A stretch of DNA of 64,000 nucleotides from Escherichia coli (GCF_003019035.1 NZ_CP027447.1), one strand, 5' to 3'. Counted from the stretch's first letter, positions 46,226 through 51,228 are shown. Made by a program: numbers and translations. Notes: generated from the sequence alone by a model not told the origin.

Positions 46226-46723
46226 TCACCGCAGCATCGTCATCAGCTCCATGGGAGAACGATGCTGCTTTATCAGATCACGCATCACCCGCATATGCGG
46301 CGCGGAGTAAGAATAAAACGCCTGATAGCCCGCACAAAGCACGTTGTCTGGCGTCTCCTCCCGAGCGTGCGGGCACAGCCGATGCCAGTCGCACGCCTGG
46401 CAGCCACGGCGCGGTTGCGGGTTTTCGCTGCCACACCATTTTTGTAGGGTGGCGTCAAAAAGCTCAATCGAAATACGACTGATATCTGCCCGTACCCAAC
46501 ACTCGAACAGGGCAATTAAAAATTTCCCCCACAGCTCTGCTGTCACCGAAGCGGCCGTCAGATCGCCCCGGTCATCAAATTCAAGATGGGGAATAAGCTG
46601 TACGGAGCGGATACCCCGTTGTTTGAAATTGTGATAAAAATCGGCAGGTTGCAGAGCATCCTTGTACTCTACAACCAGTTTATGCCTGTCCTCTTCAGCA
46701 TCAATGACCTGACTTCCTGTCAT
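46226..46723 (-). CDS. yidF: Cys-rich protein, putative sulfatase-maturase-like
   Basis: 165 aa with several Cys clusters; adjacent to the yidJ sulfatase gene. Confidence 0.65.
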   Translation of the reverse strand: MTGSQVIDAEEDRHKLVVEYKDALQPADFYHNFKQRGIRSVQLIPHLEFDDRGDLTAASVTAELWGKFLIALFECWVRADISRISIELFDATLQKWCGSENPQPRRGCQACDWHRLCPHAREETPDNVLCAGYQAFYSYSAPHMRVMRDLIKQHRSPMELMTMLR

Positions 46724-47082
46724 GCGACTCTCTCAATAAATACGATAAGTTGATGTATATGCGTTACAGCAAACAGTATTGCGAGAGATAACACCGCGAG
46801 GGAGATCAAAAATTTGTCACGGACTACGTGAAATTGGGAAAAATCGCTATTCGTGACATCCATTAAATTGCGATTACGGGTGTAGTGCCAGAGGATCAGC
46901 GCCACAATGGCGAGAATGCCAATCGAAATCCAGAATAACATGCCCGCCTGGTGCCAGTTGTGTTTGATAGCCAACGCCATCAACGCGCCGTAGCCCAGCA
47001 TGGTACGAAACCACGCCAGTGATGTACGCTCCGGCTGCAGCCCTGGGTCGGCAATGCGTCTGGCTTTGCGGCTATCCGGCAT
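46720..47082 (-). CDS. yidG: Small inner membrane protein (DUF202 family)
   Basis: 120 aa, three hydrophobic helices; overlaps the yidF and yidH ends. Confidence 0.7.
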   Translation of the reverse strand: MPDSRKARRIADPGLQPERTSLAWFRTMLGYGALMALAIKHNWHQAGMLFWISIGILAIVALILWHYTRNRNLMDVTNSDFSQFHVVRDKFLISLAVLSLAILFAVTHIHQLIVFIERVA

Positions 47083-47419
47083 ACAACACCAGTCCCATAA
47101 CGATCACCGCTACGACCATCAATATTAAGCTGATGATTAATAAGCTGTTGGTGTAGGGCAGGTCCTCTTTCAGACGCATCGCTTTTTCATTGCGTAACCA
47201 GCGCAGGTAGCCATACATCGCTAACCCGCCGGAAAACAGACACAACAACAACGCCAGCAGTTCGCGAATGACGGGCGTGGCGAAATCTGGCGCAAGTTGA
47301 TCAAGCCCAACCCCCGCCGCCAGAAAGCCTAGTGCGGTACGGATCCACGCCAGAAAAGTACGCTCATTAGCCAGCGAGAAGCGATAATCAGGTGCTTCTC
47401 CGAGGCGGGAAATTTTCAT
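47072..47419 (-). CDS. yidH: Small inner membrane protein (DUF202 family)
   Basis: 115 aa, paralogous in topology to yidG. Confidence 0.7.
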   Translation of the reverse strand: MKISRLGEAPDYRFSLANERTFLAWIRTALGFLAAGVGLDQLAPDFATPVIRELLALLLCLFSGGLAMYGYLRWLRNEKAMRLKEDLPYTNSLLIISLILMVVAVIVMGLVLYAG

Positions 47420-48022: not shown

Positions 48023-49516
48023 TCAGAACTTCTGTTTTTTCTCTTCCACCTTCACCCCTTGTGTCGGTAGGCCGGTGTCATAGTCGCGTACCACTGGCGA
48101 ATAGCCATCTTGTGGGCGTGGACGAAACGCCCCCATCCAGCGCGGTCGTGCATCTTTACGCCACGGACGCAGACTCCACTGGTAACTGCGGAACGGATCG
48201 CGAATTTTATCCATGTAATCCAATAAGGCGTCATGCATTTTGCGGCGAACGTCGGCAAAACGGATATCATCTATCAGGTTATGCATTTCATTTGAATCAT
48301 TACGGCGATCGTAAAGTTCATCACTGGTGAAGAGGTTGAGCACCAGTTTAAAGTCATCCGTCACCCAGCAACGCACCGGAATAAAACCGCCAAAGCTGTC
48401 ATGCTCAATCTCGTAGCGGTTAAATTCCACCATTACACCGCGTGGCTCTTTCACGGCAAGGATATTTTCCCCCGGCAGAATCTCTGGTTTTTCAATATCT
48501 GCCAGCGCCATCATTGTCGGCAGTAAATCGATATGACTGACTGGCGTATCGACCTGTCGCCGCTCCCCTTGCGGCGAACGGATGATCAGCGGAATGCGGG
48601 TGATGTCGTCATACATCGCCGCTCCTTTACTGATCAGCTTATGTGCGCCCATCATTTCGCCGTGATCGGAGGTATAAATGACCCACGTATTTTCACGTTG
48701 CTCTGACGTTAAGGCATTGATGACCCGTCCGATTTGGTCATCAACAAAGTCATTGCAGGCAAAATAGAGCGGATGGTGATAAAGCCCGTCATCACCGACT
48801 GGCGATGGCATCGCCTGCGCCCATAAGCGGTGATGTTCCGGTTTGTTCGCCAGGTCATCCTGTGATTTCTCGCCAAGTTCGTAGTAAAAATCAGCGTATT
48901 TCTCTAAATACTCCACCGGACAGGTGAACGGGTGATGCGGCTCATCATACGAAACCACCATCAGGAAGGGTTCCTCGGCGCGCGCGGGCTGTTGCAGAAA
49001 ATCTACCGCCCGATTGCTGATGCGGTGCGCCCAGGTGAAGGTTTCGTCGATATGGTTCGCCTGTAAATCCTCAACGCTGTTTAGGCCATTGCGCCACAGG
49101 CTGATCTCTTTTTCCGTCAGTTCGCTAAGGTAGTTCGCCCCATCGAACCAGTAATCAGCGTCCCACTCCGGCGGACACTCGCCAGTGCCGAAATAGTCAT
49201 GACCGTCGAGATGCCATTTGCCGATGTAACAGGTGTGATAGCCCGCATCCTTAAAGTAGCGTCCCATAGTGGAGATGTTTTTGCCCGGCGCGACGTTGTT
49301 GGTCCACGGGCCGGACTGGTTAGCGTAGATACCGGTAAACAGCCCGGCGCGCGCTGGTGTACAAACCGGTGAACAGGTGTAGGCGGAATTAAAGCGAATA
49401 CTTTCCGCCGCCAGACTATCAATATTTTGCGTATTCAGCGGCTTACCGCTATAGCAACCGACCATATTGGTGGCCTGGGTATCGGTCATGATGAACAGAA
49501 AATTGGGGCGTTTCAT
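48023..49516 (-). CDS. yidJ: Sulfatase (formylglycine-dependent arylsulfatase family)
   Basis: 497 aa; sulfatase signature around CTPARAG near the N-terminus. Confidence 0.8.
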   Translation of the reverse strand: MKRPNFLFIMTDTQATNMVGCYSGKPLNTQNIDSLAAESIRFNSAYTCSPVCTPARAGLFTGIYANQSGPWTNNVAPGKNISTMGRYFKDAGYHTCYIGKWHLDGHDYFGTGECPPEWDADYWFDGANYLSELTEKEISLWRNGLNSVEDLQANHIDETFTWAHRISNRAVDFLQQPARAEEPFLMVVSYDEPHHPFTCPVEYLEKYADFYYELGEKSQDDLANKPEHHRLWAQAMPSPVGDDGLYHHPLYFACNDFVDDQIGRVINALTSEQRENTWVIYTSDHGEMMGAHKLISKGAAMYDDITRIPLIIRSPQGERRQVDTPVSHIDLLPTMMALADIEKPEILPGENILAVKEPRGVMVEFNRYEIEHDSFGGFIPVRCWVTDDFKLVLNLFTSDELYDRRNDSNEMHNLIDDIRFADVRRKMHDALLDYMDKIRDPFRSYQWSLRPWRKDARPRWMGAFRPRPQDGYSPVVRDYDTGLPTQGVKVEEKKQKF

Positions 49517-51228
49517 AGGCTATCCTTCGCGTCGGGAGTAAAGGTTACGGCTGGGTCGTGACGATGCCGCCAGCTGTCAAAAATCAGGTAGACAATCACT
49601 ACGGCAGCGATGAAATAACTGATCATCGCTAACCAGCGCGTACCGTAGCCGCCGAATTCAGCCAGCCCGGCATAGACGCCAATCATAGCGAACAGGATGC
49701 CAATTGACGCGATCTTGACGTTTTTCCACGGTTTCATGTCCACCGCAAACGCATCTTTGAAGGTGAACGGCGTGGCGCGCGGTTTGATAAAACCGATCAC
49801 CAGCATCACGACCACGTTGATGCAGAACGTACAGGCCAGCACATAGAGGAAATGGAAGTCGAACTTCACCAGATAGTTGATGGTGATGTAGCTGATTATG
49901 CCAATCCCCATCGCCACTTTTGCCGCCAGCGCTGGAATGCGCGGGAAGAAAAAGCCCATAATGATGATGGTAACCAGCGGCACGTTGTAAATGCCGTTGA
50001 GCTGTTTCATCCAGCTATACAGCCCCTGCGGCGCGTTGGCGATCCACGGCGCTACCAGCACCGAAACGATGGCGATAAAGAAACCAAATTTGCGCCCGAC
50101 GGTGACCAGCTGCTGCGGCTCGGCATTCTGGTTAATGATGCGACGGTAAATACCCATACTGAATAACGTACTGGCGCTATTCAGAAAGCCGTTGAAGGTA
50201 CTGATCACCGCACCAAATAACACCGCGCCGAAGAAACCCACCAGTGGCACTGGCAGAACGTTATTGACCAGCGTCGGGTAGGCCATGTCGGCTTTCGGTA
50301 GATCCTGATACAGATGAAACGCAATCAACCCTGGCAGCACCAGTACCAGCGGGTCGAGCATTTTCAGCACCGCCGTTAACAGCGCCCCCTTTTGCCCTTC
50401 CGCCAGGCTTTTTGACGCCAGCGTGCGTTGCACGATGCCCTGATTTGTACACCAGTAAAAGGTGTTCACCAGAATCAAACCGGTAAATGCCGCGCCAATC
50501 GGCAAGGGATCGGTCGGGCCACCGACTGAGTTTAATTTCTCGGCGTGAACGGTGGTGAGTTGCTCAATGCCCTGCATAAAGCTGCCCTTGCCCATCGCGA
50601 TCAGGCCAAATATCGGCACCATCAACCCGCCAATAACCAGCCCAATACCGTTGATGGAGTCCGCCACTGCCATTGCGCGCAGTCCGCCGATCACCGCATA
50701 CAAAATTCCCGCCAGACCAAGCAAAATTACCAATAGCCAGATAGCCGCACCGTGAGAAATCTGTAGCGATTCCCCGACGTGAAACAGGCTGTTGAGCGCC
50801 AACGCGCCGGAGTAGAGAACAATCGGCAGAAAGCAGACGCCGGTGGCAATGAGGAAGCAGAAGTCGATGATAATACGCGTCGTTTTATCATAACGTTCCT
50901 CCAGAAAATCGGGGATGGTGGCAATGCCGCGCTTCAGATAGCGCGGTAAAAAGATTAGCGCGAGGAAGATCAGCGTCACTGCAGAGGTGACTTCCCAGCC
51001 CATCACCGACATGCCGCTTTTGTAGGCCTGCCCGGAAAGGCCGACCAGTTGTTCCGTGGAAAGGTTGGTTAGCATTAACGAAGCGGCAATAACCGGCGCT
51101 TTTAGTGAACGTCCGGCAAGAAAATAGCCTTGTTGCGATCCGGTATCTGTTTTACGGACCTTCCACCAGGTGATGATCGCCACCAGCAGCGTAAAACCGA
51201 CAAAACTCAAGATTTGTAACGAATTCAT
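49513..51228 (-). CDS. yidK: Sodium:solute symporter (SSS family)
   Basis: 571 aa, about 13-14 TM segments; overlaps the yidJ start. Confidence 0.8.
   Translation of the reverse strand: MNSLQILSFVGFTLLVAIITWWKVRKTDTGSQQGYFLAGRSLKAPVIAASLMLTNLSTEQLVGLSGQAYKSGMSVMGWEVTSAVTLIFLALIFLPRYLKRGIATIPDFLEERYDKTTRIIIDFCFLIATGVCFLPIVLYSGALALNSLFHVGESLQISHGAAIWLLVILLGLAGILYAVIGGLRAMAVADSINGIGLVIGGLMVPIFGLIAMGKGSFMQGIEQLTTVHAEKLNSVGGPTDPLPIGAAFTGLILVNTFYWCTNQGIVQRTLASKSLAEGQKGALLTAVLKMLDPLVLVLPGLIAFHLYQDLPKADMAYPTLVNNVLPVPLVGFFGAVLFGAVISTFNGFLNSASTLFSMGIYRRIINQNAEPQQLVTVGRKFGFFIAIVSVLVAPWIANAPQGLYSWMKQLNGIYNVPLVTIIIMGFFFPRIPALAAKVAMGIGIISYITINYLVKFDFHFLYVLACTFCINVVVMLVIGFIKPRATPFTFKDAFAVDMKPWKNVKIASIGILFAMIGVYAGLAEFGGYGTRWLAMISYFIAAVVIVYLIFDSWRHRHDPAVTFTPDAKDSL

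Follow-up and report, generated by a model that had tools for sequence, protein, structure and literature searches.

The window analysed here, a 64,000-nucleotide stretch of an Escherichia coli chromosome, carries yidF, yidG, yidH, yidI, yidJ, yidK and yidL, an already known locus that is still uncharacterised and whose genes retain putative or uncharacterized labels in K-12 RefSeq. Bases 46000-51500 differ from strain SCU-301 by 2 mismatches, and the locus was found in 5420 of 5426 complete genomes. Purifying selection is evident within Escherichia, with dN/dS values of 0.02-0.04 for yidK, 0.056 for yidJ, 0.01 for yidH and 0.09-0.11 for yidF (Fisher p ≤ 1e-19). The region examined extends from the yidF stop at position 46226 to the yidK start at position 51228, together with the control region and the regulator gene beyond it.

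The sulfatase gene, yidJ (48023..49516, minus strand), encodes 497 residues that match Pfam Sulfatase PF00884 (E = 8.2e-72, residues 4-341) and SGSH_C (E = 2e-15). The CxPxR-type signature reported by the first-pass annotation was read directly from the sequence as C52-T-P-A-R56, with codons at 49349..49363 on the minus strand, and the need for formylglycine maturation is upheld. This segment opens signature I, C52TPARAGLFTG62, which fits (C/S)-x-(P/A)-x-R-x4-T-G; signature II, G92YHTCYIGKWH102, fits G-Y-x-(S/T)-x3-G-K-x-H. The residues D12, Q14, C52, P54, R56, K100, H102, H194 and H195 are invariant in 53 YidJ orthologues, and the SDHG and SKG motifs, holding D284, H285 and K297, are present. 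Since the sulfatase domain begins at residue 4, the protein has no signal peptide; YidJ is thus a predicted cytoplasmic S1 sulfatase of the Cys-type (formylglycine) class.

The best PDB matches of YidJ are only ~30% identical and cover many specificities (S1_30, GlcNAc-6-sulfatase, choline sulfatase and carrageenan sulfatase), so that the sequence does not reveal the substrate. The top NCBIfam scores were to arylsulfatase (213 bits) and choline-sulfatase (199 bits), and the PehA-type phosphoric/sulfuric ester hydrolase family also scored, all far under curated cut-offs of 433-900 bits; membership of the choline-sulfatase family, with a cut-off of 433 bits, was rejected. A literature search found no published substrate for the yidJ/yidK locus, in agreement with the earlier remark that none had been established, and a 2025 paper still terms yidJ a 'putative sulfatase/phosphatase' (PMC12585060).

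The co-oriented sodium:solute symporter described earlier is indeed present as yidK (49513..51228, minus strand; 571 aa), the stop of which shares 4 nt with the start of yidJ, and the two genes are translationally coupled. YidK matches Pfam SSF PF00474 (E = 2.7e-50) and NCBIfam NF007790 (856.6 bits, cut-off 401), and among solved structures it is closest to vSGLT, SGLT1 and SGLT2 (E = 1e-53 to 1e-40). YidK N55, Q60, E79, S82, N255 and K289, invariant in 53 orthologues, align with vSGLT N64, Q69, E88, S91, N260 and K294, while an invariant Lys408 stands in place of Q428; we take these vSGLT residues to be its galactose-binding positions. From this likeness YidK is a predicted SGLT-like Na+/sugar symporter. 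A growth phenotype on galactose has been reported for a yidK deletion mutant (PMC5293155).

The product of yidF (46226..46723, minus strand) has 6 Cys among 165 residues, as its earlier description as a small Cys-rich protein implied, but it is really an internally deleted anaerobic sulfatase-maturating enzyme (anSME). Full-length YidF orthologues of ~370 aa are radical-SAM anSMEs with CX3CX2C intact (e.g. C-NLD-C-RY-C), and alignment to them revealed two in-frame internal deletions in the E. coli protein. Roughly orthologue residues 8-150 are gone, with the SAM-binding GGE motif and the N-terminal half of the barrel, as are the auxiliary-cluster-I region, the GDC Cys and the segment CGHAF...QCDH; a full SPASM domain with two auxiliary [4Fe-4S] sites is thereby missing. 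The CX3CX2C radical-SAM cluster motif is absent from E. coli YidF, and Pfam SPASM gave no match to it. E. coli YidF still begins at the original MTGS... start and retains the barrel's C-terminal half, C108, C111, C117 and C130, and the C-terminal helix. The score against NCBIfam TIGR03942 was 75.9 bits (cut-off 349.45), covering profile positions 160-245 and the C-terminus; by this comparison YidF is homologous to that anSME family without being a member enzyme of it. In its AlphaFold2 model (pLDDT 83) the sole significant Foldseek match is the fold of anSMEcpe (TMq 0.66). Among 48 homologues no substitution is seen at C108, C111 or C130, and conservation of C117 reaches at least 90%; in the alignment to PDB 4k36 the four fall, within a loop modelled at low confidence, on anSMEcpe C317, C320, C326 and C348, which are presumably the auxiliary-cluster-II ligands.

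Having lost its radical-SAM and SAM-binding motifs along with the auxiliary-cluster-I region, E. coli YidF is incapable of maturation by the known chemistry. In this species, then, the module is not self-contained as had been proposed, and the activation of YidJ must come from elsewhere. K-12 possesses a full-length paralogue, AslB, that is 45% identical to Citrobacter YidF over its whole length; it has also been reported that E. coli modifies only Cys-type sulfatases, and a formylglycine system yet to be identified is suspected (PMC6189696, PMC8379841). The shortened YidF has been kept by selection, probably as a small Fe-S protein that partners YidH and YidG.

These partners are inner-membrane proteins of the DUF202 family (Pfam PF02656), encoded on the minus strand by yidH (47072..47419; E = 2.8e-19) and yidG (46720..47082; E = 7.1e-12), each with three predicted membrane helices. 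The genes overlap by 11 nt, and the yidG stop shares 4 nt with the start of yidF, yidG being directly upstream of yidF in about 50 loci. yidH is the most conserved gene of the cluster (dN/dS about 0.01). As yidH-yidG remain without the rest of the cluster in Salmonella and Enterobacter, they are not strictly sulfatase accessories; an anion-channel role for the pair may be proposed as speculation.

yidF had also been placed adjacent to the sulfatase gene, an arrangement that overlooks yidG, yidH and the opposite-strand yidI lying between them, and a hairpin that further separates yidKJ from yidHGF. yidI (47527..47976, plus strand) encodes a 149-aa membrane protein with no Pfam or NCBIfam match and, among about 60 loci, is limited to Escherichia, C. 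youngae, Phytobacter and S. arizonae. This distribution marks yidI as a lineage-specific insertion between yidJ and yidH, outside the ancestral operon. Between the convergent yidJ and yidI stops, RNA folding identified the hairpin at 47986..48020 (-26.2 kcal/mol, z = -4.8; 0 of 200 shuffles equally stable), a probable bidirectional terminator. With yidHGF so separated from yidKJ, transcription of yidHGF must begin in the yidH/yidI divergent intergenic region (47420..47526); a search of this region for a consensus sigma-70 match found none, and we infer that the yidHGF promoter lies within it.

In about 40 Enterobacterales loci the order is yidL | yidK-yidJ-yidH-yidG-yidF with a YidF of ~370 aa, many of them sharing one chromosomal position, with yidE on one side and dsdA/emrD on the other. 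Synteny thus suggests an ancestral operon yidK-yidJ-yidH-yidG-yidF with full-length YidF, of which the E. coli locus would be a degraded derivative; the conserved module is larger than the yidF, yidJ and yidK originally grouped, as it takes in the DUF202 pair and an ancestrally full-length maturase. Relatives display every stage of loss, from loci in which yidJKL are gone to those in which yidF is shortened or gone or yidHG alone are left. In Psychromonas, Serratia and Marinomonas the DUF202 pair and maturase also adjoin other sulfatase genes. The Psychromonas DUF202-DUF202-anSME triad adjoins genes for two sulfatases, GH127, an aldehyde dehydrogenase, a KDPGal-type aldolase and a 2-dehydro-3-deoxygalactonokinase; its sulfatases are 24% identical to YidJ, so that their gene context is weak evidence for YidJ. 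A GH36 alpha-galactosidase is found nearby in Marinomonas.

An AraC regulator next door had been noted, and yidL (51395..52288, plus strand) is divergent and of this family, but its promoter in K-12 is under H-NS repression, with BglJ-RcsB as activator (PMC3950696), and its frame in the window holds a nonsense codon. The Pfam matches (HTH_AraC, E = 1.5e-18; HTH_18, E = 1.8e-17; AraC_binding, E = 6.7e-07) predict an AraC/XylS-type regulator with a C-terminal double HTH and an N-terminal AraC-type ligand domain. Codon 16 is TAA (51440-51442) in the window, TAC with the frame intact in SCU-301, and Tyr in all relatives examined. The exact 71-mer with the stop occurred in 0 of 4760 matching complete genomes, and the stop codon is private to the window. 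The AT-rich yidK/yidL divergent control region (51229..51394; GC 0.42-0.44) contains blocks upstream of yidK that are conserved across genera, GGGACATAAnnATAAAT-AAGGGC-N6-ATG, in an alignment of 26 orthologous intergenic regions. Taken together, the defective maturase, the silencing of yidL in K-12 and its interruption in the window indicate that the module may seldom or never be expressed.

On the observed gene identities, motifs, synteny, YidF deletions and selection, the locus likely serves the uptake and desulfation of a sulfated sugar, and of YidF, its dedicated activating enzyme, E. coli retains a short piece that is still conserved. Our favoured account, put forward with moderate confidence, is a cryptic, regulator-controlled module by which a small sulfated sugar is imported and its sulfate removed in the cytoplasm, and the earlier logic of a transporter paired with a cytoplasmic sulfatase is upheld. 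YidK, an SGLT-like Na+ symporter, would carry the sulfate ester into the cell, YidJ would hydrolyse it there after conversion of Cys52 to formylglycine, and the desulfated sugar would pass into ordinary metabolism. YidL would probably respond to the substrate and activate yidK from its divergent promoter, in a region that H-NS silences under laboratory conditions. The ancestral YidF would have been the dedicated radical-SAM maturase of YidJ, with the membrane DUF202 pair YidH/YidG travelling with it; in E. coli, yidI and the terminator split the operon, and in-frame deletions have cost YidF its radical-SAM core and first auxiliary cluster. Given these deletions, formylglycine formation in YidJ must rest on another E. 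coli activity, which may be a paralogue (AslB or YdeM) or a maturation activity still to be identified. A galactose-configured sulfated sugar is our leading guess at the substrate class, hinted at by the context of the Psychromonas triad, the Marinomonas GH36 and the presence of an exo-2S-iota-carrageenan sulfatase among the top PDB matches of YidJ.

An unlikely alternative is that the module scavenges sulfur, obtaining sulfate from an organic ester during shortage of the inorganic form, and does not feed on the ester's carbon skeleton. Sulfate freed in the cytoplasm could enter assimilation directly, the E. coli cluster contains no catabolic enzyme genes, which also counts against the favoured account, and in a betaproteobacterial relative the genes flanking YidJ (66% identity) and an anSME encode a binding protein similar to SsuA/NMT1 and a SulP sulfate permease. 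Against this, the regulator is AraC-type with a ligand domain like those of sugar regulators, and the arrangement is not of the CysB/Cbl type; the SGLT-like transporter keeps its sugar-site residues; and in one experiment the use of an unidentified sulfur source for growth was not explained by yidJ disruption (PMC12585060). It is similarly doubtful that the E. coli cluster is a decaying and effectively non-functional relic, in which YidJ is never activated and persistence reflects slow decay. The loss of the catalytic parts of YidF, the division of the operon, the silencing and interruption of yidL and the loss series among relatives are all as such decay would leave them, but selection across Escherichia species is strongly purifying (dN/dS 0.02-0.06 for yidK/yidJ, 0.1 for yidF), at least 80% of the region is retained in 5111 of the 5426 complete genomes and the yidL stop is confined to the window. 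More improbable still is a non-carbohydrate substrate, such as choline-O-sulfate, an aryl sulfate or a phosphate/phosphonate monoester, which would suit the highest NCBIfam scores, the K-12 annotation 'sulfatase/phosphatase' and the known promiscuity of S1 enzymes, but those scores are far under their cut-offs, the partner transporter is SGLT-type and not BCCT or ABC, and the link to a dedicated anSME favours a genuine formylglycine sulfatase.

The favoured module shares parts with several known systems. The YidF model has the fold of Clostridium perfringens anSMEcpe (PDB 4K36-4K39), the structural reference for anSMEs, but spans about one third of it (TMt 0.32) and lacks CX3CX2C, the SAM site and equivalents of Cys255/261/276/330. 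YidH and YidG share a Pfam family with the transmembrane domain of the eukaryotic VTC polyphosphate polymerase/channel (Vtc1, Vtc2, Vtc3), but carry neither catalytic nor SPX domains. YidK is structurally closest to vSGLT of Vibrio parahaemolyticus (Na+/galactose) and human SGLT1/2 (Na+/glucose), and is conserved at the residues aligned to the galactose site, except that Q428 of vSGLT is replaced by Lys408; transport of a sulfated sugar by YidK would be an extension of this likeness. The pairs aslA-aslB and ydeN-ydeM of E. coli and atsA-atsB of Klebsiella likewise place a formylglycine sulfatase gene beside an AslB-like anSME; their sulfatases are, to our knowledge, exported, and we know of no dedicated importer for them. 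The yid module differs in a sulfatase without a signal peptide, in the addition of an SGLT-type importer, an AraC regulator and the DUF202 pair, and in the internally deleted E. coli maturase. The yidL promoter resembles that of bgl, a cryptic H-NS-silenced sugar operon of E. coli, in being H-NS-repressed and BglJ-RcsB-activated, whereas the chemistry is that of sulfate esters in yid and of beta-glucosides in bgl. In choline-O-sulfate utilisation by Ensifer meliloti, a small sulfate ester is likewise imported and then cleaved by a cytoplasmic Cys-type sulfatase, the choline sulfatase encoded by betC (PMC6189696), but the yid module has a different substrate, another transporter family and another regulator.

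Gene calls were taken from an ORF listing and the RefSeq annotation. The region is part of the E. coli chromosome; window positions 46000-51500 carry two mismatches to strain SCU-301, the nearest E. coli genome, and the region was found in 5420 of 5426 complete E. coli genomes, with at least 80% of its length present in 5111. Following emrD (45028-46218, + strand), the order is yidF (46226-46723, -), yidG (46720-47082, -), yidH (47072-47419, -), yidI (47527-47976, +), yidJ (48023-49516, -), yidK (49513-51228, -), yidL (51395-52288, +) and glvA (52285-53607, -). The first-pass annotation had proposed a self-contained uptake and desulfation module consisting of a cysteine-rich small protein (YidF) adjacent to a sulfatase (YidJ) and a symporter (YidK). 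Its boundaries, 46226 and 51228, are exactly the yidF stop and the yidK start, and uptake plus desulfation stands in outline. However, yidG, yidH and yidI, which that description passes over, separate YidF from the sulfatase, and neither the term "self-contained" nor the view taken of YidF could be kept. The observation is thus real but incompletely described; as the locus has long been known and annotated, the feature itself is not new. The present analysis contributes the five-gene operon of the ancestral type, the anatomy of a truncated maturase and its maintenance by selection, a recurring unit of DUF202 proteins and maturase, and a stop codon in yidL that is private to the window. On the far side of yidL, window positions 52285-55484 hold glvA as an intact gene for a 440-aa 6-phospho-alpha-glucosidase followed by a long PTS ORF; at the corresponding position in K-12 MG1655, glvG is annotated as a pseudogene.

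The cysteine-rich protein YidF is an internally deleted anaerobic sulfatase-maturating enzyme (anSME). A Pfam search of YidF gave no match, and the NCBIfam anaerobic sulfatase maturase model gave 76 bits (cut-off 349), limited to profile positions 160-245 and the C-terminus. Using phmmer, YidF aligned to two separate stretches of the Clostridium perfringens enzyme (anSMEcpe), which was also the sole fold match of its AlphaFold2 model (pLDDT 83, pTM 0.80), with about one third of anSMEcpe covered. Orthologues of YidF elsewhere are approximately 370 aa long, start with MTGC.VMAKPASSRCNL.CRYCFY with an intact CX3CX2C motif, and have GGEPTL and the complete set of SPASM cysteines. In the alignment, the MTGS start of E. 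coli YidF is the same start as that of these orthologues, and the E. coli protein is without their residues 8-150 (approximately) and the CGHAF...QCDH segment. Its C108, C111, C117 and C130 align with anSMEcpe C317, C320, C326 and C348, which bind the second auxiliary cluster in that enzyme; Cys330, which binds the first, has no equivalent left. As the radical-SAM part, the CGHAF...QCDH segment and the Cys330 equivalent have all been lost, E. coli YidF is incapable of radical-SAM chemistry. The E. coli module is for this reason not self-contained. The idea that YidF matures YidJ in E. coli was rejected, for known chemistry, because the protein has no radical-SAM motif.

The truncated gene is nevertheless under selection. 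In comparisons of the window with three other Escherichia lineages, the dN/dS of yidF was 0.09-0.11 (Fisher p <= 1e-19) and fell to 0.02-0.06 in the C-terminal 35 residues, where constraint was strongest; the values for yidJ, yidK and yidH were 0.056, 0.02-0.04 and 0.01, respectively. An exhaustive profile-free search recovered relatives of graded lengths (311, 310, 315, 249, 220, 176, 165 and 140 aa), in which CX3CX2C and GGE are destroyed or deleted, the reading frame is still open, and the CX2CX5C...C cysteines and the tail P-x-M-R-V-M-R-D-L-x-x-x-R-S-P-x-E-L-M are retained. Two of the forms of about 310 aa occupy the same locus, after yidH-yidG, in genomes without yidJKL. Deletion boundaries vary by lineage in the alignment, and in a neighbour-joining tree with long branches most short forms cluster, with Leclercia joining the full-length sequences. 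That YidF is a dead pseudogene was rejected, given a dN/dS of about 0.1 (p <= 1e-19) and a frame kept in many shortened forms. The persistence of frame, cysteines, tail and purifying selection fits a C-terminal domain that is still needed after the loss of enzyme activity, and this shrinking yet conserved protein would be a clean natural case of an enzyme becoming a small non-catalytic one. Four high-GC anSME relatives (P0408, P0414, P0382 and P0345), probably actinobacterial, are without CX3CX2C and keep the C-terminal CX2CX5C...C and tail; because they show the same pattern, loss of the radical-SAM part with retention of the C-terminal domain may have taken place in parallel outside Enterobacterales.

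The ancestral arrangement was identified by scanning one genome per species for YidJ, followed by tblastn and ORF clustering; distant YidJ-like loci (L065-L075, 26-29% identity) are not orthologous and were left out of the context analysis. About 40 loci have a divergent yidL next to yidK-yidJ-yidH-yidG-yidF with yidF at full length, among them loci from Citrobacter, Kluyvera, Trabulsiella, Pluralibacter, Atlantibacter, Pseudocitrobacter, Buttiauxella, Limnobaculum, Pantoea, Erwinia, Rahnella and Chimaeribacter. Many, e.g. those of Citrobacter, Kluyvera, Trabulsiella and Pseudocitrobacter, lie at the E. coli site, between yidE and dsdA/emrD. The sulfatase genes accompany a short YidF (165-176 aa) in Escherichia, S. 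enterica subsp. arizonae, K. oxytoca, K. spallanzanii, Superficieibacter and one MAG; yidH-yidG and a short yidF are present without yidJKL in a Citrobacter, Leclercia and K. pneumoniae (140 aa); and only yidH-yidG is left in S. enterica and Enterobacter kobei. In Kluyvera georgiana (L060, 10532-16615), two extra sulfatases, an arylsulfotransferase (ASST) and an MFS_2 glycoside transporter lie between yidJ and yidH, enlarging the operon to a bigger sulfate-ester island. A record labelled Chryseobacterium sp. 18061 (CACSKA010000004.1) holds a yidE-glv-yidLKJHGF-emrD locus of the usual Enterobacteriaceae type, almost the same as the one in Citrobacter sp. 18056, and is probably mislabelled or contaminated.

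The remaining gene, yidI, lies between yidJ and yidH in the opposite orientation and encodes a 149-aa membrane protein without a family match. Only four lineages have it (Escherichia, C. youngae, Phytobacter and S. arizonae, the last in degraded form); its dN/dS is 0.12-0.24, and it is a later insertion. A strong hairpin separates the yidJ and yidI stops in E. coli, and yidHGF would therefore be a separate transcription unit. Between Escherichia lineages (L007, L008 and L044), dS is much higher in yidF/G/H (0.39-0.95) than in yidJ/K (0.11-0.46), and in "E. coli E69" YidJ and YidK are 99% identical and YidF only 84%, a contrast that suggests a recombination boundary near yidI.

YidJ has the features of an S1 sulfatase (Pfam Sulfatase, E = 8e-72, plus SGSH_C), with both classical signatures, C52TPARAGLFTG and G92YHTCYIGKWH. 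Residues D12, Q14, C52, P54, R56, K100, H102, H194 and H195 are invariant in 53 orthologues, and SDHG and SKG motifs hold D284, H285 and K297. Because the Sulfatase domain starts at residue 4 (MKRPNFLFIMTDTQ), YidJ is a cytoplasmic protein without a signal peptide. Its best PDB relatives, all about 30% identical, are an S1_30 enzyme, a Bacteroides enzyme annotated as choline-sulfatase, an exo-2S-iota-carrageenan sulfatase and a GlcNAc-6-sulfatase, and every NCBIfam match was far under its cut-off; with such distant relatives of many specificities, the YidJ sequence alone does not give the substrate.

With its own maturase truncated, YidJ would have to be activated from elsewhere. K-12 retains the paralogue AslB at full length (45% identity with Citrobacter YidF), and neither another anSME nor a second sulfatase was found elsewhere in the window. 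Two papers state that E. coli modifies Cys-type sulfatases only, and that a third formylglycine system is suspected beyond AslB and YdeM (PMC6189696; PMC8379841). As YidJ is of the Cys type, any of AslB, YdeM or the suspected third system could serve it. E. coli is the workhorse for recombinant sulfatase production, and the locus makes its route to formylglycine a directly testable problem, as the ancestral operon had its own intact maturase, the E. coli copy is crippled, and complete versions exist in relatives such as Citrobacter youngae, Kluyvera and Atlantibacter.

YidK belongs to the SSS family and matches the specific model NF007790 (857 bits against a cut-off of 401), and its gene overlaps yidJ by 4 nt, so the two are translated as a unit. 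The closest structures are the Vibrio parahaemolyticus Na+/galactose symporter vSGLT, SGLT1 and SGLT2. YidK N55, Q60, E79, S82, N255 and K289, invariant in the 53 orthologues, align with vSGLT N64, Q69, E88, S91, N260 and K294, its galactose ligands, and the vSGLT Q428 position is an equally invariant Lys408. The first-pass statement that the substrate is not established was borne out: a literature search on yidJ, yidK, yidF, yidL, the b-numbers and "cytoplasmic sulfatase" found no paper assigning one, and gave only a yidK growth phenotype on galactose, yidL regulation and yidJ as a candidate gene. The current K-12 annotation of the locus is still "putative", as is the label given to yidJ in a 2025 paper (PMC12585060). 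Indirect evidence, each item of it weak, favours with low confidence a small sulfated sugar whose ring resembles that of galactose: the SGLT-like YidK keeps a vSGLT-type sugar site, a yidK deletion mutant is reported to have a growth phenotype on galactose (PMC5293155), related clusters adjoin galactose-pathway and galactosidase genes, and a carrageenan sulfatase ranks among the nearest structures to YidJ. YidJ and YidK are y-genes still without a function, and a substrate of this type, from mucin, keratan sulfate or dietary carrageenan, would have a bearing on enterobacterial cross-feeding in the gut.

The product of yidL has AraC-type HTH and ligand domains. H-NS represses the yidL promoter in K-12 and BglJ-RcsB activates it (PMC3950696), and the spacer between yidK and yidL is rich in AT. 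When 26 orthologous spacers were aligned, conserved blocks appeared immediately upstream of yidK, together with very strong conservation of the first 20 yidL codons, which establishes the ATG at 51395 as the true start; a promoter scan of the two control regions gave no credible match. Codon 16 (51440-51442) is TAA in the window, TAC in SCU-301 and an invariant Tyr in the orthologues examined, and not one of the 4760 complete E. coli genomes that match here has the window's allele. Across 13.5 kb, this base and 51327 in the yidK-yidL spacer (A to G) are the sole differences from SCU-301; G at 51327 is a natural, common polymorphism present in 303 complete genomes. The TAA is either a private mutation or a sequencing error, and would truncate or abolish the putative regulator.

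YidH and YidG, the two small inner-membrane DUF202 proteins, were also found with the maturase outside the set of yidJ orthologues, where several architectures share the order DUF202-DUF202-anSME. In a Psychromonas MAG (L081, 1-14345) this triad lies beside two cytoplasmic-looking sulfatases (24% identical to YidJ), an MFS sugar transporter, GH127, an aldehyde dehydrogenase, a KDPGal-type aldolase and 2-dehydro-3-deoxygalactonokinase, a gene set that resembles carrageenan and anhydrogalactose catabolism. In Serratia plymuthica the triad adjoins a PTS permease, a 581-aa sulfatase and a GntR regulator. Marinomonas has the order anSME-DUF202-DUF202 adjoining YidJ (74% identity), a second sulfatase, three SSS transporters and a GH36 alpha-galactosidase. 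A Vibrio/Psychromonas locus (AraC divergent from SSS-YidJ-DUF202-DUF202, YidJ 70% identical) has no maturase and a SulP permease nearby, and the DUF202 pair is missing from the loci of Sodalis and a betaproteobacterium that carry YidJ and an anSME.

One reading of this recurrence is that YidH-YidG and the YidF C-terminal domain form a conserved membrane-associated unit important for cytoplasmic sulfatases. It draws on the recurrence of the triad with different sulfatases and transporters, the survival of the YidF frame through in-frame shrinkages from 311 down to 140 aa, and the strong selection on the C-terminal helix and the cysteines aligned with the second auxiliary cluster; we nonetheless consider it improbable. 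Such a unit might anchor the maturase or be its redox partner, or it might let released sulfate out. The narrower proposal that YidH/YidG are the dedicated sulfate outlet of this operon is weakened, as the pair survives alone in Salmonella and Enterobacter and always adjoins the maturase rather than the sulfatase. Should the membrane-associated unit be real, E. coli YidF could be a pseudoenzyme with one bound Fe-S cluster and a function of its own, which could conceivably be part of the "third" formylglycine-generating activity of E. coli. Deletion of yidH in E. coli has been reported to cause H2O2 sensitivity, raised cellular iron and lowered NADPH (PMC4054840). A first homologue search with YidH returned close relatives only; among known systems, the eukaryotic Vtc subunits have a membrane domain that is DUF202, as in YidH and YidG.
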